Counted from the first letter of the stretch, positions 12,409 through 24,176 are shown. The stretch is DNA of 42,225 nt from Eubacteriales bacterium (GCA_045545255.1 JAZQAQ010000102.1:1-42225); one strand, 5' to 3'. Notes: generated by a model from the letters alone, not told the origin. A program made the numbers and translations.

Positions 12409-13407
12409 ATGGCTACTTTTGAAGGATATGAGAGAAGAATCGGCAAGATCCAGCCCGTATTGGAGCAGTATGGCTTCGCTACTCTGGATGAAGCCAATGA
12501 GTATTGCTTGTCCAAAGGCATTGATGTTGCCTCTATCGTGAAGGGTGTCCAGCCCATCGCAGTTGAGAATGCCTCCTGGGCTTATACCCTGGGCGCAGCT
12601 ATCGCTCTGAAGAACAACAGCAAGAACGCTGCTGACGCAGCAAGAGATATCGGTGTGGGTCTGCAGGCATTCTGTATCCCCGGCTCCGTTGCCGAGACCA
12701 GAAGCGTAGGTCTGGGTCACGGTAATCTGGCTGCTATGCTGCTGGAAGAAGAGACCAAGTGCTTCTGCTTCCTGGCAGGTCACGAGTCCTTTGCCGCTGC
12801 AGAGGGCGCAATCGGTATCGCCCGTACCGCCAATAAGGTGCGTAAAGAGCCTCTGCAGGTTATCCTGAACGGTCTCGGTAAGGATGCCGCTTATATCATC
12901 TCCAGAATCAACGGCTTCACCTATGTGGAGACCGACTATGATTTCTATACCGGCGAGCTGAAGATCGTCAACTCCACCGCTTATTCCGACGGCGACCGTG
13001 CAAAGGTTCGTTGCTACGGCTCCAATGACGTTCTGGAAGGCGTTGCTATTATGAAGCACGAGCACGTAGACGTTTCCATCACTGGTAACTCCACCAACCC
13101 CACTCGGTTCCAGCATCCCGTTGCAGGTTCCTATAAGAAGTGGTGCTGGGAGAACGGCAAGAAGTACTTCTCCGTCGCTTCCGGCGGTGGTACCGGCCGT
13201 ACCCTGCATCCCGATAATATGGCCGCAGGCCCCGCTTCCTACGGCTTGACCGATACCATGGGTCGTATGCATGGTGATGCTCAGTTCGCAGGCTCCTCCT
13301 CCGTTCCTGCCCACGTCGAAATGATGGGCTTGATCGGTGCCGGTAACAACCCCATGGTTGGTATGACCGTGGCAGTTGCCGTAGCAGTAAGCGAAGCTTT
13401 GAAATAA
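12409..13407 (+). CDS. GGGtGRT protein (conserved family of unknown function)
   Basis: Contains the eponymous motif in SVASGGGTGRTLHPDN. 332 aa. AAGGAAGGAGG RBS and a strong terminator. Confidence 0.85.
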   Translation: MATFEGYERRIGKIQPVLEQYGFATLDEANEYCLSKGIDVASIVKGVQPIAVENASWAYTLGAAIALKNNSKNAADAARDIGVGLQAFCIPGSVAETRSVGLGHGNLAAMLLEEETKCFCFLAGHESFAAAEGAIGIARTANKVRKEPLQVILNGLGKDAAYIISRINGFTYVETDYDFYTGELKIVNSTAYSDGDRAKVRCYGSNDVLEGVAIMKHEHVDVSITGNSTNPTRFQHPVAGSYKKWCWENGKKYFSVASGGGTGRTLHPDNMAAGPASYGLTDTMGRMHGDAQFAGSSSVPAHVEMMGLIGAGNNPMVGMTVAVAVAVSEALK

Positions 13408-13415
13408 GGTGAATC

Positions 13416-13455
13416 AAAACAAAAAGAGTTGCCTTGAGGCAACTCTTTTTGTTTT
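13416..13455 (+). terminator. Strong intrinsic terminator after the GGGtGRT gene
   Basis: 18-bp arms AAAACAAAAAGAGTTGCC / GGCAACTCTTTTTGTTTT around a TTGA loop. Confidence 0.85.
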
Positions 13456-13497
13456 AAAAGTGTTTATAAGTACAAGTTTTGAATTAATAGAGGGAAG

Positions 13498-14082
13498 ATG
13501 TTATCATATTATTTAAGTTTTATTGACGACGAAAACAGTCGCATTAAATTTGAAGAATTATACTATGCATATCGAAAACAAATGATATTGGTTGCAAAAA
13601 AGTATATTCAGAATGATGATGATGCTCAAGATGTGGTTCATGATGTCTTAGTTGATATTGCTGCAAAACATATGTCGTTGATTCAATCTATTAATGATTC
13701 CAGAGATGTAAGAAATTACTTATTAACAGCTACAAAAAATAGAGCGATAAATGAAATAAAAAGAAGAGATAAGTTTGTATCGTTTGAAAAAGTCGAGAGT
13801 GTTGATCTGTCTAAATATTCAACTTTAAATGATTCTGATTTTATTGATTTGTTATGTGAACGATTAGAATATAAATGTGTTTTAGAGGCAATGCTTAAGT
13901 TAGATGAACCGTATAGAGATGTTTTGTATTATCATTTTGTTGTGGAATTAAAAATAGCGGATATTGCAAAACTTCTTGACCGAAAGGTTCAAACGGTAAA
14001 AAAACAACTAGTTAGAGGAAAAAAACAATTGTTAAGCATATTAGCTGTGGAAGGAATTTTTGATAATTATGCCAATGAATAA
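13498..14082 (+). CDS. ECF-type sigma-70 family RNA polymerase sigma factor
   Basis: Region 2-like FEELYYAYRKQMILVAKKYIQNDDDAQDVVHDVLV and a region 4 HTH (LKIADIAKLLDRKVQTVKKQLVRGKKQL). 194 aa. Lies in the AT-rich island. Confidence 0.85.
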   Translation: MLSYYLSFIDDENSRIKFEELYYAYRKQMILVAKKYIQNDDDAQDVVHDVLVDIAAKHMSLIQSINDSRDVRNYLLTATKNRAINEIKRRDKFVSFEKVESVDLSKYSTLNDSDFIDLLCERLEYKCVLEAMLKLDEPYRDVLYYHFVVELKIADIAKLLDRKVQTVKKQLVRGKKQLLSILAVEGIFDNYANE

Positions 14083-14737
14083 AGCGGATTTATTTGATGC
14101 ATTTAGAAAAGCAGCCAGTGTCGAGTTCGAAGATATTCCGCCGGAAATATGTATTGATTATGCTTTTTCAGTAGATTTTGAATGTAAACTAAAAAAACTG
14201 ATAAAAAAAGAAAAACAAAGGTTGTGGCATTTTATTAATACGGGACCTAAACGGGTAATAATCATTATGATGGTATTTGCTTTATTATTTTCCACTGCAT
14301 GTAGCATCCCATCGATTAGAGAACCAATTTGTTCCTTCTTTGTTGAAGTATATAAGGATTTCGTTCATTATGTTTTTGAGGATGGCATTGATTCGATAAA
14401 AACTAAGTATAAACTCATTGCAGTTCCGAGTGGTTTTAGTAAAACGACGGTGTTCGAAACAGAATCCATCATTGTGACCACATATGAAAATTCTAATGGT
14501 GATTATTTAGAGTTTTCTCAAACAATAACCGATGATGTGGATCTTTATTTGGATTCAGAACGTGGAGAACTAACAGTAATTGACACAACAAATGTGAAAT
14601 ACTATCTTTATACACGAGAAAATTTGATACATATAGTTTTTGTGCGAGATTCATATGTTTTTAATTTGACATATCAAGGTGAACTTGAAAAGGAAGTTAT
14701 TTTCGATATTGCAACTTCAATGGCAGCGGTAGAATAA
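14069..14737 (+). CDS. Putative anti-sigma factor, single-pass membrane protein with a DUF4367-like C-terminal domain
   Basis: Overlaps the sigma gene end. Short cytoplasmic N-terminus, TM segment (VIIIMMVFALLFSTA) and an extracytoplasmic domain with TYENSNGDYLEFSQT-type motif. Alternative starts at 14060 and 14075. Confidence 0.7.
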   Translation: MPMNKADLFDAFRKAASVEFEDIPPEICIDYAFSVDFECKLKKLIKKEKQRLWHFINTGPKRVIIIMMVFALLFSTACSIPSIREPICSFFVEVYKDFVHYVFEDGIDSIKTKYKLIAVPSGFSKTTVFETESIIVTTYENSNGDYLEFSQTITDDVDLYLDSERGELTVIDTTNVKYYLYTRENLIHIVFVRDSYVFNLTYQGELEKEVIFDIATSMAAVE

Positions 14738-14788
14738 CTAATGGAGACCTGATTTTGTAATCATGAAAAATCAGGTCTCCATTAGTTA
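14735..14788. terminator. Bidirectional terminator between convergent island genes
   Basis: Perfect 22-bp arms TAACTAATGGAGACCTGATTTT / AAAATCAGGTCTCCATTAGTTA that include both stop codons. Confidence 0.8.
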
Positions 14789-15238
14789 ATATGTTTTTTT
14801 AACTTCGCATGTTATTTTGTCCGCAGAACCGCCGTTTCCATAAATTTCATATACGGCAGTAATTCGGTATGTTCCGGTTGATGGTAGTTGAAAAGTATGA
14901 GAGCCAGTATATGAGAAGTTATATATTGTATCAACCCATTGATTATTAGGTTGATTAATATCAACGCTTTTCCAGAATAATCCTAAAAAGCGTTTCTCGA
15001 TTTTTGTTGTTATGATTGCTTTTGTTGTGGTGTTTTGGATTCCAACATAACGGTTTGATATTGTGATTATTCCGGAACTAGATACAGAAGCAGAAGTTTG
15101 TGCAGAAACTACATTGTTATATAAAGGAGCTACAGTGTGAGAGGAATCAATGGTAGCTGCGTGAGTATATGGCGTTGACATAATGATTAAGAATAAAATC
15201 AAAATGATCGATAAATTTCTTTTTAATATTTTATTCAT
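14786..15238 (-). CDS. Secreted hypothetical protein (150 aa)
   Basis: Signal peptide MNKILKRNLSIILILFLIIMSTPYTHA. Ser/Thr/Asn-rich and beta-rich mature part. No family recognised. Confidence 0.65.
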   Translation of the reverse strand: MNKILKRNLSIILILFLIIMSTPYTHAATIDSSHTVAPLYNNVVSAQTSASVSSSGIITISNRYVGIQNTTTKAIITTKIEKRFLGLFWKSVDINQPNNQWVDTIYNFSYTGSHTFQLPSTGTYRITAVYEIYGNGGSADKITCEVKKTY

Positions 15239-15277
15239 GTTATTCCTTTCATTAATACAAAATTTAAAAATTTTCTT

Positions 15278-16543
15278 TTAAGGAAGAACAGTTAATTCGC
15301 TTAAACAAAGGACTTCGTCTGACCACATGTGTAAAGTGGTTGAAGAACCCCAAATTGTATTTACATATTCGTAGCGAACTTGACCAAATGCTCCCATATA
15401 TGCATACGATTCATCTGTGACATTGCCCTCGTAAATATAATTAGTTCGTACGACTCCACCAGATGGATCATCTTCATAGCCGTCTATATCGGCGGAGTTC
15501 CATCCATAGAGTTTATAAATATTCCAAGAAACAATATTATCGTTATATATGCCCCCTATTTCTATAGTGCGGGTTGTTACTGTTGTACTCGACATAGTTA
15601 GAGGAACACCAAATGTGGTCCATCCATAATAAGGAATATAAGCTGGAAAAGTTAGATTTTGAACAACACTTCCGTTAGAAGGTGTTACCAATCCGGTAGA
15701 ATGTAAATACTTATCATTACTAATAATTTCAATCCGGTAGGTGTCTGGGTAGACGGTGAGAGATCCGGTGGTGAAACCATGTACATTTTTTAAATATGAT
15801 TTAAACTCACTACAATGGGAATTTACTTTTGCATAGACGGACATAGTATTCTGATTTTCAATCTCGTTAGCGTGGTAAATAGCGATTGTGGCAGCATCAT
15901 AACCAGAAGCATCGATTGTATCATAACCCTGTAAACGTATTGTTGCATCTACTGCCGTAGACATAACGGAATCATTTGATTGGGTTTCGTTTGATGGAAC
16001 TGACCCTTTTTTTGCTTGAACATTAAGTGCTGAGAGCTTGGAAATGTTAGAGGAAAACTCACCAAAGTAAATGATTTGAGGAGCTATTTTTCCAGCACAA
16101 CCGATGGTTAAAACAGAAAATGTTTCTGACTTTGAAATATAGTTGAAATCGAGTGTTAGTTGCTCAATTTTATTATTGTAGGATATCACGGCGTCTAAGA
16201 CACCGACATATCCGTTGGTATCATATGAATCTATTTTTCCAGTAGCAGGTACACTAATTTGTTTTTCTGGAAAAGTAATAGTAATTGATGCTTTTGTAGC
16301 ACAAGTTGATTTGAGATTCTGAATACTTACCGAGATTGATGAAACTGTATAATTTCTTTTTTCATTTTCGGTCGATGAAGAGTATTGTAGTGTGTTAGTT
16401 TGTGATTTATTTAATTGATTATTGGGGGATGAGGTGAATTGAATCATATTTGCTGTTTCCAAAGTTGTGAAAGAACAAAGATTTAGGTTTGATAATGTGA
16501 TGACTATTATCAATAGGGAAAGAATGAGGCGCTTTTTCTTCAT
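15278..16543 (-). CDS. Secreted hypothetical protein (about 421 aa)
   Basis: Start set at MKKKRLILSLLIIVITLS (signal peptide); the ORF track start is 16594. No family recognised. AT-rich codon usage like its neighbours. Confidence 0.65.
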   Translation of the reverse strand: MKKKRLILSLLIIVITLSNLNLCSFTTLETANMIQFTSSPNNQLNKSQTNTLQYSSSTENEKRNYTVSSISVSIQNLKSTCATKASITITFPEKQISVPATGKIDSYDTNGYVGVLDAVISYNNKIEQLTLDFNYISKSETFSVLTIGCAGKIAPQIIYFGEFSSNISKLSALNVQAKKGSVPSNETQSNDSVMSTAVDATIRLQGYDTIDASGYDAATIAIYHANEIENQNTMSVYAKVNSHCSEFKSYLKNVHGFTTGSLTVYPDTYRIEIISNDKYLHSTGLVTPSNGSVVQNLTFPAYIPYYGWTTFGVPLTMSSTTVTTRTIEIGGIYNDNIVSWNIYKLYGWNSADIDGYEDDPSGGVVRTNYIYEGNVTDESYAYMGAFGQVRYEYVNTIWGSSTTLHMWSDEVLCLSELTVLP

Positions 16544-16598
16544 GATTATTTTCCTTTCTTTTCTAATTAATAGTGATAATGTTTTTATAATCAACAGT

Positions 16599-17216
16599 TC
16601 ATATGTTATCCTCCTCCTTTTTTCTTAAAATGTAATATGAGGTGCATATTAGGGCGATCAAGGGATAGATATTGAAAAGAAAACTTTGTAAATAACTTGT
16701 TAATTTATATACAATGAATGGGACTGTCATTTGGGAAAGTATGCTTGAAAAGAATTCTAATGCAGTTGAGTAGGTGAATAGCAGAATGCCTATAATTATC
16801 CATATTGAGGAAAAATATTTCAATTTAATTATTTTGAAGTAATGGCCGGTAAAAAAAATAATTAAGAATAAGAGAACTAATTGGATGATAAATGAACTTT
16901 TTATCTCGCCAGATATCCAAAAAAGAGTGAGAGGTAATATGATACCACCAAAGATCAAGGCTATTTTATAAAATAAATAGAGCCAATCTTTGGTGTTGGC
17001 TTTATTGGTTTTGCAAAAGACCAAAAGAACAAGAAGAGAGGCACTTATACGAATGGCTAGTTGGAAAGAATCATAGATTATCACATTAAAATGGCTGGTT
17101 GTATTGCCAAAGAATAAATTGATAGTAAATGGACGAATAGTCCCAATAATTAATAAGTTGATTAATGAGTATATTGTTATGGCTTTCCAAAAAGATTTTA
17201 AGGAATTCATATTCAT
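16599..17216 (-). CDS. Polytopic membrane protein (205 aa), function unknown
   Basis: About 6 hydrophobic segments and no catalytic motif recognised (no AgrB-type or CPBP-type residues). First gene of the minus-strand island operon. Confidence 0.6.
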   Translation of the reverse strand: MNMNSLKSFWKAITIYSLINLLIIGTIRPFTINLFFGNTTSHFNVIIYDSFQLAIRISASLLVLLVFCKTNKANTKDWLYLFYKIALIFGGIILPLTLFWISGEIKSSFIIQLVLLFLIIFFTGHYFKIIKLKYFSSIWIIIGILLFTYSTALEFFSSILSQMTVPFIVYKLTSYLQSFLFNIYPLIALICTSYYILRKKEEDNI

Positions 17217-17340
17217 ATAATAAAGATCCTTGATTAAGAATTTGGTGTTTCTATTAATATAACAACGATAGAAACAAAAAGAGGACAGAAAAAAAGAATT
17301 TTTTTGTATGCGGTGGATTTTAAATAAAAAATCACCAATA

Positions 17341-17388
17341 AATCCTATGATTAGTATGACTGTGGCTGTATCTGAGGCTCTGAAGTAA
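17341..17388 (+). pseudogene. Diverged duplicate of the last ~15 codons of a GGGtGRT gene
   Basis: Translates to NPMISMTVAVSEALK*. The intact gene ends NPMVGMTVAVAVAVSEALK* (13348-13407). The copy is AT-richer and has no gene body upstream. Confidence 0.65.
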
Positions 17389-17442
17389 GGTTAGACCGCT
17401 GAAATCAGCGCAGACCGACTAAAATAAAGAAAGAACCTGCTT

Positions 17443-17797
17443 GTGGCACCCTCCGTAAGGAAGGTGCCACAGTTATATTCGCCTAACGGCGAGTGATATT
17501 GCTACGCAGTTATATTATGCTACGCATAGTGATATTGTCCTTCGGACAGTTAAATGGGCGAATATAATATCACTGAAACCGTTAGGTTTCAATATCACTT
17601 TTGCTGCAAGGCAAAAATATCACTGCAAACGATAGTTTGCAATATCACTTTACCTGCCGAGAAAAATACTCTTTATTTTCGGCGAGTATTTACCTTTCTC
17701 AAAGTACGTAACCCACTATGACACTTTCACAATACAAAAGTATCATTTCTCTTATAAAAGGAAAAAGGAGACAACTTCTTTACGAAGTGTCTCCTTT
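17443..17797 (+). mobile_element. ~355-bp non-coding structured element inserted into a terminator loop (copy A of a repeat family; MITE/PATE-like)
   Basis: Its flanks, 17429-17442 and 17798-17814, reconstitute the intact terminator seen at 22172-22201. Subterminal hairpins at 17442-17471 and 17767-17794. No ORF with an RBS. Homologous in layout and tail sequence to 23112-23451. Confidence 0.55.
17566..17649 (+). repeat. Four AATATCACT motifs at an exact 25-nt period, separated by three different 16-nt hairpins
   Basis: Motif starts at 17566, 17591, 17616 and 17641. Spacers are GAAACC-GTTA-GGTTTC, TTTGC-TGCAAG-GCAAA and GCAAAC-GATA-GTTTGC. Inverted motif copies (AGTGATATT / AGTTATATT) lie at 17471, 17492, 17508 and 17528. 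Confidence 0.85.
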
Positions 17798-17820
17798 CGG
17801 CAGGTTCTTTTTTTGTGTCT

Positions 17821-17878
17821 TCGCGTCGGGATGACCGCTCGGCGTATCATATACGCCTTCGGGACCGTCCCGACGCGA
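17821..17878. repeat. Nested palindrome
   Basis: Outer 11-bp arms TCGCGTCGGGA / TCCCGACGCGA enclose an inner hairpin GGCGTAT-CAT-ATACGCC. GACCGCTC (17833-17840) is also complementary to GAGCGGTC (17893-17900). Confidence 0.6.
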
Positions 17879-17972
17879 TCTGCATCTGATTTGAGCGGTC
17901 TGCGGGAGGAATATCGGAGAAAACGAAAATCTCATCCCATTTGAAAGGTTTGTAAAAACCAAATGAATTAGA

Positions 17973-22169: not shown

Positions 22170-22174
22170 AGGAA

Positions 22175-22201
22175 AGAACCTGCTTCGGCAGGTTCTTTTT
22201 T
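22175..22201 (+). terminator. Intrinsic terminator (the intact version of the sequence split at 17.44/17.80 kb)
   Basis: AGAACCTGC-TTCG-GCAGGTTCT followed by TTTTT. Confidence 0.85.
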
Positions 22202-22238
22202 ATATCCCATCATACAATCACCGCTACGGCATCAGCAT

Positions 22239-22658
22239 CCATACATTGATATCCATCAATGTATGGATGCTGTCCGAACGTCAATAATTAGAGGAGCATT
22301 GATGCACATCAATGCCTTGCGATGACTATACATTGATGAGCACCGATGCTTGGCGTTGACATATACATTGATCAGTATCAATGCCTTGAGATAACTATAC
22401 ATTGATGAGAATCAATGTCTTGATATAATTATATATTGATGAGTATCAATGCGTTGCGATAGTTATACATTGATGAGTATCGATGCTTGGTGTTGACATA
22501 TGCATTGATGAGTATCAATGTTTGGCGTTAGCATATACATTGATCAACATTGATGCTTGGTGTTGACAAATACATTGATGAGCATCGATGCCCTGCGATA
22601 GCTATACATTGATGGAGATCGATGTTGGGTTTGGCATATGTATTGATGAGAAGCGAGG
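22239..22658. repeat. Array of 12 CATTGAT-N4-ATCAATG palindromes; ten form a head-to-tail run with a 34-35 bp period
   Basis: Core starts at 22244, 22297, 22331, 22366, 22400, 22434, 22468, 22503, 22538, 22573, 22607 and 22641 (the last is degenerate). There are two spacer variants. The first copy, 22239-22266, is a perfect 12+4+12 palindrome. Confidence 0.9.
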
Positions 22659-22715
22659 TTCTGATGGGGTATTTTAGAGGGGAGGAGTATGTAGATTTAA
22701 AGCATCGTGCAGATA

Positions 22716-22744
22716 TTGACAAATTCACAAAAAATGTTATCATT
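22716..22744 (+). promoter_or_regulatory. Extended -10 promoter of the ArsR-family gene
   Basis: TTGACA (22716-22721), a 16-nt spacer, then TG-T-TATCAT (22735-22743). Confidence 0.65.
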
Positions 22745-22770
22745 TATACATTGATGATCATCAATGTATA
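22745..22770. promoter_or_regulatory. Perfect 26-bp palindromic operator TATACATTGAT-GATC-ATCAATGTATA
   Basis: Lies between the -10 element and the GGAGGG RBS of the wHTH regulator gene. Has the same core as the upstream array. Confidence 0.7.
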
Positions 22771-22788: not shown

Positions 22789-23058
22789 ATGAGCGATCAG
22801 GAGTTGATCCAATGTTTGAAAGTAATGGCGGATCCGATACGCTATGCTATTTTAGATATGCTTCGAGAGCGACCGGCGCACTCTTATGAGCTTTTAGCCG
22901 GATTATCCATTACACAACCGACACTTTCTCATCATATGAAGGTATTGCGAGAATCCGGGTTGGTAACCGTTATACAGGAACCGCGCTGGAAAACCTATGC
23001 ATTAAATGAAATAAAACTCGGCACACTCATCCGACAATTAGAAGAATTCTTGAAGTGA
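22789..23058 (+). CDS. ArsR/SmtB-family winged-helix transcriptional regulator (89 aa), no obvious metal-sensing site
   Basis: ADPIRYAILDML...ELLAGLSITQPTLSHHMKVLRESGLV is the ArsR HTH signature. There is only one Cys (C9), no ELCVCDL motif and no C-terminal His/Asp/Glu cluster. Confidence 0.85.
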   Translation: MSDQELIQCLKVMADPIRYAILDMLRERPAHSYELLAGLSITQPTLSHHMKVLRESGLVTVIQEPRWKTYALNEIKLGTLIRQLEEFLK

Positions 23059-23111: not shown

Positions 23112-23451
23112 TCTTTAGCATTGTGTCCCGAAGGACACAATGCAGCGATATAAATCCCTTGCAGGATTTGCGATATGGCAAAGCTGCGATATGTCCTTTT
23201 TGCGCGATATGTGCCTTACGGCACGGGATAGGGGATTTATATCATATCGCATTTACCGATCGGTAAATATATCGTTTTTTCGTCAGAAAAAATATCGCAT
23301 TGCGAAGCAATATATCGCCAAAATAATTACTACCTGAAAAAGAGCTTTGTTTTCTCTTCTTCGGGTAGTTTTGTTTTACACTATTACAAGCAGGAATTTT
23401 GTATGCCAAAATTTCACGTTCTTTATAAAAAACTGACCTTAAGTAATCTAC
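23112..23451 (+). repeat. Copy B1 (~340 bp) of the structured non-coding element family
   Basis: Left hairpin CATTGTGTCC-CGAA-GGACACAATG (23119-23142). GCGATAT motifs at 23145, 23170, 23186 and 23204. Inverted ATATCG(C) motifs at 23244, 23269, 23292 and 23312, each separated by a different hairpin. The tail resembles 17650-17766. Boundaries are approximate. Confidence 0.7.
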
Positions 23452-23573
23452 TCTTTAGCATTGTGTCCCCAAGGACACAATGCAGCGATATAAATCCCTT
23501 GCAGGATTTGCAATATAGCAAAGCTGCGATATGTGCCTTGCGGCACGGGAAAGTGGATTTATATCATATCGCA
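23452..23573 (+). repeat. Copy B2, a truncated tandem copy of the same element
   Basis: Near-identical to B1 over the left hairpin and the motif array, apart from an 18-nt deletion. Homology stops at ATATCGCA (23573). Confidence 0.75.
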
Positions 23574-23575
23574 CA

Positions 23576-23604
23576 TTGACCTTGGTTTTAAAATATGGTA
23601 TGAT
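23576..23604 (+). promoter_or_regulatory. Candidate promoter of the ygjV operon at the B2 truncation point
   Basis: TTGACC (23576-23581), a 17-nt spacer, then TATGAT (23599-23604), 30 nt upstream of the ATG. Confidence 0.5.
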
Positions 23605-23633: not shown

Positions 23634-24176
23634 ATGCATTTTTTAGAGCGGTTGATAACGGAAAACGGCATCGCCTGGGTGGTCGGTCAGGGCTTTGGCA
23701 TACTGGCGATCATCCTGGGATTTATTTCCTATCAAGTGCGGACGCAGCGTCAAATTTTGTTTATGCAAAGTATGGTCGCGGTGGTGTTTAGCATACATTA
23801 CTTTTTGATCGGGGCTTATTCCGGTATGGCGATGAACGCCTTGAATATCGCTCGAAATATTTGCTACGATTATCGGGTGAGAAAGGGCATCTGCAGTAAG
23901 CTGATTCCCATCGGCTTTGTTGTACTGCAGGCGGCGATCTGCAGCTTGACTTGGGAAGCGTGGTATTCGGTATTTGTGATGCTGGGGATTTGCATCAATA
24001 GCTATTGTATGTCTTTTTCAGATCCGCAAAACGTGCGAAAAAGCATTCTTGTGACCTCGCCGATGGTGCTGACCTACGATGCATTTGCCCGTTCGGTGGG
24101 CGGATTTATTTACGAAGCGGTGGCGCTTGCTTCTGCAATGATTGGAATTTTGAGAAATAGGGGGAAGAAAAAATGA
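23634..24176 (+). CDS. YgjV-family inner membrane protein
   Basis: 180-aa protein with about 5-6 TM segments, and the pattern GQGFGILAIILGFISYQVRTQRQIL...IHYFLIGAYSGMAMNALNIARN is typical of YgjV. GAGAAGAGG RBS. Confidence 0.7.
   Translation: MHFLERLITENGIAWVVGQGFGILAIILGFISYQVRTQRQILFMQSMVAVVFSIHYFLIGAYSGMAMNALNIARNICYDYRVRKGICSKLIPIGFVVLQAAICSLTWEAWYSVFVMLGICINSYCMSFSDPQNVRKSILVTSPMVLTYDAFARSVGGFIYEAVALASAMIGILRNRGKKK

Follow-up and report, generated by a model that had tools for sequence, protein, structure and literature searches.

A Gut-1 motif array of gut Clostridia as part of a two-armed interspersed repeat inserted into an intrinsic terminator

Introduction

A 42,225-nucleotide stretch of DNA from an Eubacteriales bacterium (GCA_045545255.1, JAZQAQ010000102.1:1-42225), here called the window, contains at 17471-17649 a short motif that alternates with small hairpins and is inverted in the left half. 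The locus raises the question of what such an array is, and whether its structure is selected as RNA, as single-stranded DNA or not at all. The array proved to be another member of Gut-1, a family that is already catalogued and whose catalogue description is incomplete. In its full form, Gut-1 is a two-armed, non-coding interspersed repeat of gut Oscillospirales/Clostridia, roughly 350 bp long in the window.

Gut-1 was published by Weinberg et al. (2010) as a candidate non-coding RNA with covariation, found in human gut metagenome sequence only and assigned neither an organism nor a function (PMC2864571). Apart from the original paper, there was no mention of Gut-1 or of its Rfam accession, RF01706, in the literature searched.

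Results

The left half of the array (17470-17560, +) matched the Rfam model of Gut-1 with 57.7 bits (E = 5e-9), above the gathering score of 50. A preliminary description of the window had recognised no described RNA family here and had itself named a significant covariance-model score as the ground for giving up this claim, which is thus refuted. On the minus strand, the right half (17562-17650) scored 39.9 bits with the same model at a relaxed threshold. Since the left half and the opposite-strand right half both match, the element is an inverted pair of Gut-1-like arrays. All arms and copies other than the first left half stayed below the Gut-1 threshold (39.9, 32.6, 24.5 and 20.7 bits). 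The three short hairpins between GUGAAAU/GUGAUAU-type motifs by which Gut-1 is recognised were present, their stems being 96.7-100% paired and including doubly changed pairs. The right array, with four AUAUCAC motifs and hairpins, was also found in the flanks of the Weinberg seed sequences BAAZ01000095, BAAZ01000085, BAAZ01000322 and BAAZ01000187, and seed BAAV01002358 combines a left-hand GUGAAAU with a right-hand AUUUCAC. The helix that closes the left domain (P1, described below) is likewise present in flanks of Gut-1 seed sequences. Because the seed flanks carry the right array, the two-armed layout is a property of the family, though it lies outside the Rfam model.

Exact copies of the 9-mer AATATCACT occur on the plus strand at 17566, 17591, 17616 and 17641, its reverse complement AGTGATATT at 17492 and 17528, and a one-mismatch variant, AGTTATATT, at 17471 and 17508. 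The six exact copies in either orientation are the only ones in the whole 42,225-base window, in which about 0.3 copies would be expected by chance from base composition, and all lie within 17492-17649. The right spacers are perfect hairpins of 5-6 bp (GAAACC-GTTA-GGTTTC, TTTGC-TGCAAG-GCAAA, GCAAAC-GATA-GTTTGC), and the left spacers are shorter ones (CGCC-TAAC-GGCG, GC-TAC-GC, ATGC-TAC-GCAT, GTCC-TTC-GGAC). The array as first described, both its 9-mers with hairpin spacers and the reverse-complement motifs interleaved with small hairpins in the left half, was therefore reproduced in position and structure, and is far beyond chance.

The element consists of a long hairpin, a left domain of about 95 nt with three to four short hairpins and GYGAWAU-type motifs, closed by P1, and a right array of three to five ATATCRC motifs alternating with stable hairpins. 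In the window, these parts belong to an inserted unit of 353 bp on the plus strand (17443..17795), delimited by a clean gap in the alignment with the related contig L241, within which no open reading frame (ORF) of at least 60 aa was found. It begins with a leading hairpin, hp0 (GTGGCACCCTCC-GTAA-GGAAGGTGCCAC; 17443..17470, +), which has a GNRA loop on the plus strand. The left domain (17470..17567, +) has its motifs at 17471, 17492, 17508 and 17528 and its hairpins at 17480-17491, 17501-17507, 17517-17527 and 17537-17547, and is the Gut-1 motif proper according to the RF01706 match and covariation. It is followed by the right array (17566..17649, +), with four AATATCACT motifs and three hairpins (17575-17590, 17600-17615, 17625-17640), a layout retained in class-1 (GTGATAT/ATATCAC) elements. 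A right part of 146 nt (17650..17795, +), still inside the insertion, contains an imperfect hairpin (~17654-17690), the box GTAACCCACTATGACACTTT (17719-17738) and a terminal hairpin (17767-17794).

Syntenic relatives (L240-L245) were obtained by a protein search with the neighbouring 665-aa protein followed by contig look-ups. Apart from a clean gap of 355 nt, positions 17340-17930 of the window were about 97% identical to L241 (91% protein identity). Downstream of its GGGtGRT gene, L241 has an uninterrupted terminator, GAACCTGC-TTCG-GCAGGTTC-TTTTTTT; in the window, 17443-17795 splits the loop and is flanked by TT at either end. The host terminator's 5' arm, GAAAGAACCTGC, and the first flanking TT lie at 17429..17442 (+); the second TT, followed by the 3' arm and the T-run, TTCGGCAGGTTCTTTTTT, lies at 17796..17813 (+). 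The intact form, GAAAGAACCTGCTTCGGCAGGTTCTTTTTT, is present in L241 and at 22172-22201. The window copy is thus part of a recent 353-bp insertion into the loop of an intrinsic terminator.

Copies of this 30-nt terminator also follow unrelated genes and occur in relatives (window 22172-22201, L240 4782-4813, and the split copy 17429-17442/17796-17813); the sequence is thus itself recurrent, and may be the preferred insertion target.

No Gut-1 signal was detected in 58 kb of the five syntenic relatives; the window has three copies and no others. L240, L244 and L245 lack the entire stretch at 22.2-23.6 kb, in which copies 2 and 3 lie. Contig L096 carries two copies that are identical from the first left motif onward and have unrelated left flanks, and L022 and L091 have different element classes after the same tRNA-Thr/Tyr pair.

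One genome per species was scanned for three ATATCRC motifs with gaps of 9-20 nt. The scan gave at least 119 stretches, with at least 80 loci that contain true elements and at least 115 arrays after filtering for hairpin spacers. The family-wide counts of arrays, spacers, loci and placements given here rest on these scan loci, among the matches listed. The hosts were nearly all metagenome-assembled genomes (MAGs) labelled Oscillospiraceae, Acutalibacteraceae, Ruminococcaceae, Christensenellaceae, Clostridia or Eubacteriales, with a few labelled Lachnospiraceae, from human, goat, sheep, deer, buffalo, cattle and horse. Matches without hairpins (Actinomycetes, Proteobacteria, others) were rejected as ordinary tandem repeats. 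Several copies per contig or MAG were present in L096, L107, L114, L115 and the window. All copies were intergenic, and every type of intergenic region was represented.

An association with phages or plasmids was rejected. The same pattern gave at least 120 stretches in viral contigs with about three true elements among the matches listed, and a BLAST search with the window unit yielded a single fragment among 50,697 phage records, in a fecal phage contig, and no element in the plasmid collection. The only plasmid matches were two 41-nt hits in Kurthia plasmids, which align with the right part and not with the arrays. The window itself represents chromosomal DNA of gut Clostridia; a Clostridia MAG encodes the closest homologue of the 665-aa protein (91% identical). 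A protein-based metagenome scan for relatives of this protein found none, and an exact-protein look-up for strain comparison gave no record for three window proteins.

Pairing within the spacers is maintained by compensatory change. Three or more Watson-Crick pairs were present in 266 of the 337 unique spacers, compared with 75 among shuffled ones. In a first count, about 98% of stem pairs were Watson-Crick (1376 Watson-Crick, 24 G.T, 20 A.C). The first right hairpin occurs at different loci as GAAACC/GGTTTC, GAAGCC/GGCTTC and GAAACT/AGTTTC. Modules may also be exchanged whole: the second right hairpin is the sole difference between L064 and L103.

Compensatory change likewise maintains P1, a long-range helix in which the first left motif and the 5' arm of the first hairpin pair with the centre of the element, closing the left domain. 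In the window, its 5' arm TTATATTCGCC (17473..17483, +) is a perfect 11-nt complement of 17557-17567 (+), where the 3' arm GGCGAATATAA abuts the first right motif. P1 of the second copy is formed by GATATAAATCCC (23147-23158) and GGGATTTATATC (23232-23243) on the plus strand. A perfect complement of 9-14 nt was found in 34 of 98 arrays. In about 30 arrays it lay at a constant distance of 91-98 nt ahead of the first right motif, P1 having 10-14 perfect pairs there; the same query against downstream DNA reached a maximum of 8 nt. Variants of the helix change in step (TTATATTCGCC, TTCTATTCGCC, TTTTATTCGCC, GATATAAATTCC, GATATGGATCCTGC). Since P1 competes with the local first hairpin (CGCC...GGCG), alternative folds are possible.

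In 24 aligned class-1 left domains, P1 and three hairpins had 98.1% of cells paired and seven pairs changed on both sides; at one P1 position, AU occurred 15 times, CG and UA four times each and UG once. The covariation score was 0.245, compared with 0.064 after shuffling, and none of 500 shuffles scored as high. When the 3' partners were slid by 1-3 columns, pairing fell to 32-47%. An unguided RNAalifold consensus of 18 whole elements recovered P1 (13 pairs) as the helix closing the left domain, with 23 covarying pairs in total, and folded the right array into three separate hairpins with ATATCAC single-stranded. The view that variable stems keep their pairing, and that selection acts on a folded RNA or single-stranded DNA, is retained as the best reading on the strength of pairing and covariation.

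The spacing of the motifs is not fixed. An exact 25-nt step, which the preliminary description had taken to be conserved, occurs only in the right arm of the first copy. The steps are 21, 16 and 20 nt in its left arm, and 25/16/18 and 25/23/20 nt in the copy at 23.1 kb. Over at least 115 arrays, the start-to-start distance was 14-33 nt and mostly 16-27 nt, so that the family has no fixed 25-nt phase. Motif classes with matching left and right versions were GTGATAT/ATATCAC, GCGATAT/ATATCGC and GUGAAAU/AUUUCAC, two of which coexist within the one genome of the window. Within class 1, the left motifs drift (GTTATAT, GTTCTAT, GTGGTAT, GTGTTAT), whereas the right motifs are invariant ATATCAC. Single arrays without a partner arm also occur. 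Co-variation between left and right motifs thus holds at the level of the class, but the drift within class 1 is uncompensated, and only the first left motif is paired, with the centre, in P1.

The loops carry a strand signal. Read in the ATATCAC sense, they were GNA in 66 cases, GNNA in 46 and TNC in one, mostly closed by C-G, and GNA triloops and GNYA loops were as frequent as GNRA loops. The C-GNA-G or C-GNNA-G loops lie, in each arm, on the strand that reads outward from the centre (112 vs 1), and adjacent pairs of arrays were divergent in 20 cases and convergent in one. The plus strand of a whole element accordingly has GNA/GNNA loops in the right arm and the mirror-image TNC/TNNC loops in the left arm. 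C-GNA-G triloops are classic extra-stable DNA mini-hairpins and more typical of DNA than of RNA; for RNA, it is unusual that GNYA loops are as common as GNRA loops. The loop pattern gives a lead towards DNA. Tandem G.A/A.G mismatches, which are sensible only on the ATATCAC-sense strand, were frequent in the first right hairpin (TGC-GA-CC...GG-GA-GCA, TGT-GA-GC...GC-GA-ACA). Hairpins were more stable on this strand in 94 vs 36 cases with an RNA energy model and in 96 vs 21 with a DNA model. As both models favour the ATATCAC sense, they did not separate the two chemistries and were dropped as a discriminator.

Wobble pairs gave a mixed signal. In right hairpins on the plus strand, G.T pairs outnumbered A.C pairs by 8 to 3, which is a weak signal for that strand. 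The left-domain hairpins had three A.C and no G.T pairs on the plus strand in a split count, favouring the minus strand, while the 24-sequence alignment of the left domain contained 3-4 G.U-type pairs in P1 and the third left hairpin, favouring the plus strand.

Two further candidates were rejected. Left UNC and right GNA loops are complementary in type, but kissing loops between them showed no element-specific matching (14 vs 11.8 +/- 2.6 permuted). A near-consensus TTGAAA-17-TATTAT on the minus strand (17592-17564) covers the first right hairpin and the element centre and points leftward. Divergent promoters at the centre were nevertheless discarded: the minus-strand site depends on a variable hairpin arm, transcription from it would begin within P1, and elements of the GCGATAT class lack a corresponding site.

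Whole elements have a preferred orientation and sit immediately 3' of terminator-like hairpins, in many cases behind a tRNA gene. A tRNA gene immediately precedes the element in 13 of 60 loci, and in every one of these the tRNA is followed by the hairpin, the left domain and then the right array; the same tRNAs recur next to elements in different species. In 89% of 35 whole elements, a stem of 6 bp or more (10 bp or more in most) ended no further than 16 nt from the first left motif, compared with 31% of random positions. The flanking gene was on the same strand as a whole element in 19 vs 7 cases on the 5' side and 20 vs 8 on the 3' side. Single arrays were less strand-biased and occurred in both orientations relative to genes. 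Some right arrays end 7-55 nt ahead of a start codon. Among the loci examined, the flanking genes were unrelated to each other (for example pyrF, lipoproteins, four-helix-bundle proteins and STAS proteins), no family scans having been run. In several species, represented by L013, L015 (downstream of the right array) and L044, the next gene encodes a small protein starting MSDSILR/MADSILR..KSK.FAK.I. This protein appears to resemble the four-helix-bundle '23S rRNA intervening sequence' protein family, which often travels with mobile DNA.

The limits of the repeating unit differ from those of the insertion. The right-part box AACCCACTATGACAC and a homologous terminal hairpin recurred only in L092. 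The 353-bp composite is therefore not what the family shares; the shared core begins with the first left motif and ends with the last right one. The core ends in an inverted 9-mer, and the 353-bp unit ends in two loosely similar hairpins.

The second copy in the window (23112..23451, +) is of the GCGATAT/ATATCGC class, with a leading hairpin at 23118-23143, right motifs within 23244-23318 and then a right part. Its left motifs are GCGATAT at 23145, 23170, 23186 and 23204. The right motifs had been reported as the exact counterpart, ATATCGC, which applies to those at 23244, 23292 and 23312; the one at 23269 is ATATCGT. The third copy (23452..23575, +) comprises a left domain only, is 94% identical to the second and scored 32.6 bits with Gut-1 at 23483-23558. 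Directly after it and ahead of an ORF at 23634-24176, there is a promoter-like TTGACC-17-TATGAT (23576-23604, +). It is kept in both L240 and L243, and the YgjV-like gene is probably transcribed from it.

Two neighbouring regions of the window were also unusual. A low-GC (31-40%) island of about 4 kb (13390-17351) lies inside the 3' end of the GGGtGRT gene (12409-13407) and encodes a sigma factor of the ECF type together with a putative anti-sigma protein, besides ORFs for secreted and membrane proteins. The original end of the gene (..MTVAVSEALK*), now displaced, is at 17352-17387, and the island is absent from L241. L240 has an insertion of about 100 nt at the same 3' end, with the same kind of 3'-end duplication. 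The site looks like an integration hot spot. At 22236-22770, directly upstream of an ArsR-family gene (22789-23058), there are about 15 tandem units of 34-35 nt with the palindrome ACATTGAT-N4-ATCAATGT. A single palindrome unit stands at the same place in L243; both the units and the ArsR gene are missing from L240, L244 and L245. The units had no Rfam match and could be operator palindromes or a separate repeat family.

Discussion

The best reading of these data is a mosaic, lineage-specific, terminator-associated interspersed repeat, similar to repetitive extragenic palindromic (REP) sequences and bacterial interspersed mosaic elements (BIMEs) or to miniature inverted-repeat transposable elements (MITEs), whose structure is selected in single-stranded form. 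On balance, and with some reserve, we favour the view that Gut-1 is primarily a DNA repeat that spreads as these elements do, with its inverted arms of short sites and mini-hairpins as the recognised module and with RNA effects, such as termination or stability, as secondary. The element would be spread or copied as DNA. Its repeated 7-9-mers, terminal as well as internal and inverted between the arms, are candidate sites for a factor, to which they would be presented single-stranded between GNA/GNNA-capped mini-hairpins. After insertion, the element would be co-transcribed with its neighbours, and its hairpins could replace the disrupted terminator. We infer the step from an inserted structured repeat to single-stranded DNA recognised by a dedicated factor.

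Several observations weigh against this interpretation. In about 80 sampled 8-kb loci, among the matches listed, there was no transposase, no other partner gene and no gene between the arms. The TT/TT flanking duplication rests on one empty site, and the flanks in L092 and L096 do not have a matching pattern; the second full unit, that of L092, has different-looking flanks with possibly a 9-bp repeat. Nor is the element a symmetric inverted-repeat transposon of the simple kind, since P1 occurs on the left only. Finally, the orientation bias, the few G.U-type pairs on the plus strand in P1 and the right hairpins, and the positions immediately ahead of start codons also fit a role as RNA.

Such a role is the main rival reading, which we consider possible but less likely. 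The element would then be a functional structured RNA of the plus strand, either a small RNA (sRNA) or a module of 3' or 5' untranslated regions transcribed with its neighbours, and its dispersal would be secondary. P1 would close the left domain, and AUAUCAC between GNRA/GNA-capped hairpins could serve as a protein platform or sponge, a terminator, a stabiliser or a processing module. This is consistent with the match to the Gut-1 covariance model and the covariation called by Weinberg et al., with the consensus fold and its 23 covarying pairs, and with the shared orientation of the elements and the genes and tRNAs upstream of them. Right arrays that end 7-55 nt before a start codon must be transcribed there. 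Non-Watson-Crick pairs on the plus strand are mostly of the G.U type (8 vs 3 in right hairpins, 3-4 in P1 and the third left hairpin), and this strand also has the tandem G.A pairs and the GNRA loops of the right array and leading hairpin. On the other hand, the plus strand has mirrored loops in its left domain, UNC/UNNC, a type that is not stable in RNA, and GNA triloops and GNYA loops as common as GNRA loops would be expected of DNA mini-hairpins more than of RNA. Wobble pairs are rare in the stems (about 2%), single arrays face either way with respect to genes, a conserved promoter was not found, and closely related species without elements indicate that the element is locally dispensable. 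The DNA-repeat and functional-RNA views are not mutually exclusive.

A more specific form of the DNA-repeat view is that Gut-1 elements are a new terminator-targeting mobile or self-copying repeat, whose arms consist of 7-9-nt sites arrayed between extra-stable C-GNA-G DNA mini-hairpins and are read in single-stranded DNA by an Oscillospirales-specific enzyme. Gut-1 would then be a Firmicutes counterpart of REPIN-RAYT with another architecture. In this specific form, we rate the proposal as improbable.

A fold in which each left motif pairs with a right motif to form a rod of 9-bp helices, broken by paired hairpins into a ladder of four-way junctions, in RNA or single-stranded DNA, is largely refuted, and we give it very little credence. 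Two of the four left motifs in the window copy are perfect complements of right motifs, the motif classes agree between arms, and the minimum-free-energy fold of the single sequence uses left-right pairs (z = -8.9 on the plus strand and -7.9 on the minus strand). However, the drift of class-1 left motifs without compensating change in ATATCAC, together with the existence of single arrays, means that the ladder is not conserved; the consensus of 18 elements leaves the right motifs unpaired, and the ladder could form only if P1 opened.

Duplex-DNA sites for a multimeric protein, as phased iterons of an origin, centromere or operator with incidentally palindromic spacers, are just as hard to believe: the short motif is repeated in two inverted groups, as in plasmid iteron and centromere arrays, but its spacing tracks hairpin length (16-27 bp) and thus lacks helical phasing, contrary to the earlier proposal of a protein reading phased sites, spacer pairing, loop type and the long-range helix are selected with a strand-specific signal, two motif classes share one genome, and the copies are scattered over chromosomes and all but missing from the plasmid and phage collections. 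The TATCACT within the 9-mer appears to fit the WATCACW heptad bound by the omega repressor of the streptococcal plasmid pSM19035. Since omega heptads are contiguous and the ATATCGC and ATTTCAC classes do not fit, this likeness is probably a coincidence.

Gut-1 has stood in Rfam since 2010 as an orphan 'human gut only' RNA, and can now be assigned to named lineages from a wide range of animals, namely Oscillospiraceae, Acutalibacteraceae, Ruminococcaceae and further Clostridia. What Rfam catalogues is only one of the two arms of a larger element, whose closing helix is missing from the model, and at least one copy is a recent terminator insertion. Matches to RF01706 in gut metagenomes may therefore mark a repeat element rather than an sRNA gene, and the filing of Gut-1 as an sRNA gene is questionable. 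A search for a mobilising or binding factor, with single-stranded DNA as well as RNA, is now indicated. For the annotation of the window, the element is non-coding and dispensable, and is probably relevant only to termination or read-through in the GGGtGRT/AraC and ArsR/YgjV intergenic regions.

The window element shares with the published Gut-1 RNA motif at least three short hairpins between GUGAWAU-type motifs, a gut-microbe origin and a supra-threshold score. The Rfam model, in contrast, covers only the left domain, filed as sRNA, without P1, the right array or the leading hairpin, and its entry is silent on the match of the opposite-strand arm, the antisense GNA-type loops and the insertion at terminators.

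Among other known systems, the likeness to protein-sponge RNAs of the CsrB/RsmZ type lies in a short conserved motif repeated between or on hairpins and in the filing as non-coding RNA. They differ in that the Gut-1 motif varies between copies in one genome, has an inverted arm, is dispersed and has no known cognate protein. Plasmid iteron, centromere or operator arrays have duplex sites in fixed helical phasing and lie on a replicon or beside a cognate gene, whereas the Gut-1 motifs are chromosomal, dispersed and spaced at 16-27 bp. The ends of Tn7, Mu and Tn402-type elements, with several subterminal transposase sites, also repeat a short site in each arm and invert it between the arms, with one at the tip of the core (AGTKATATT ... 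AATATCACT). The Gut-1 sites, however, are only 7-9 bp long and separated by selected hairpins, the arms abut without cargo, and no transposase for them was identified in the sampled loci.

Bacterial MITEs and modular repeats (Correia/CREE, RUP, BOX, ERIC) are similarly non-coding, dispersed, highly structured and 100-350 bp long, are polymorphic in their insertions among relatives, are flanked by short duplications, and can provide or disrupt terminators or promoters; BOX elements are in addition modular, with a variable number of internal units. The presence/absence polymorphism expected of a MITE was found, with an empty site in L241 at about 97% flank identity and five syntenic relatives without a copy. 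Terminal inverted repeats matching a known transposase family and an autonomous parent were not found, the latter in the sampled loci. The termini of Gut-1 are hairpins or 9-mers rather than long inverted repeats, the TT duplication is documented once, the target is a terminator loop and no parent insertion sequence is known.

The REP/BIME/REPIN elements of proteobacteria, associated with RAYT transposases, differ from Gut-1 in several respects. Gut-1 lacks GTAG at the foot of the hairpin, its motif being ATATCAC, ATATCGC or ATTTCAC; its hairpin sequences are unlike each other within an element, with 3-5 units per arm and a helix closing the left domain; its hosts are Clostridia; and there was no RAYT-like (Y1 HUH) gene between the arms in the approximately 80 sampled 8-kb loci, among the matches listed. 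Both are nevertheless built of short extragenic palindromic units in which a conserved single-stranded motif stands beside a hairpin, and both form inverted mosaic combinations in many dispersed copies, often at the 3' ends of genes. For Gut-1, this is apparent from its intergenic, multi-copy units in inverted groups (20 vs 1). For REP/BIME/REPIN elements, an activity in single-stranded DNA and an additional effect on mRNA have been proposed, and Gut-1 would resemble them in this.

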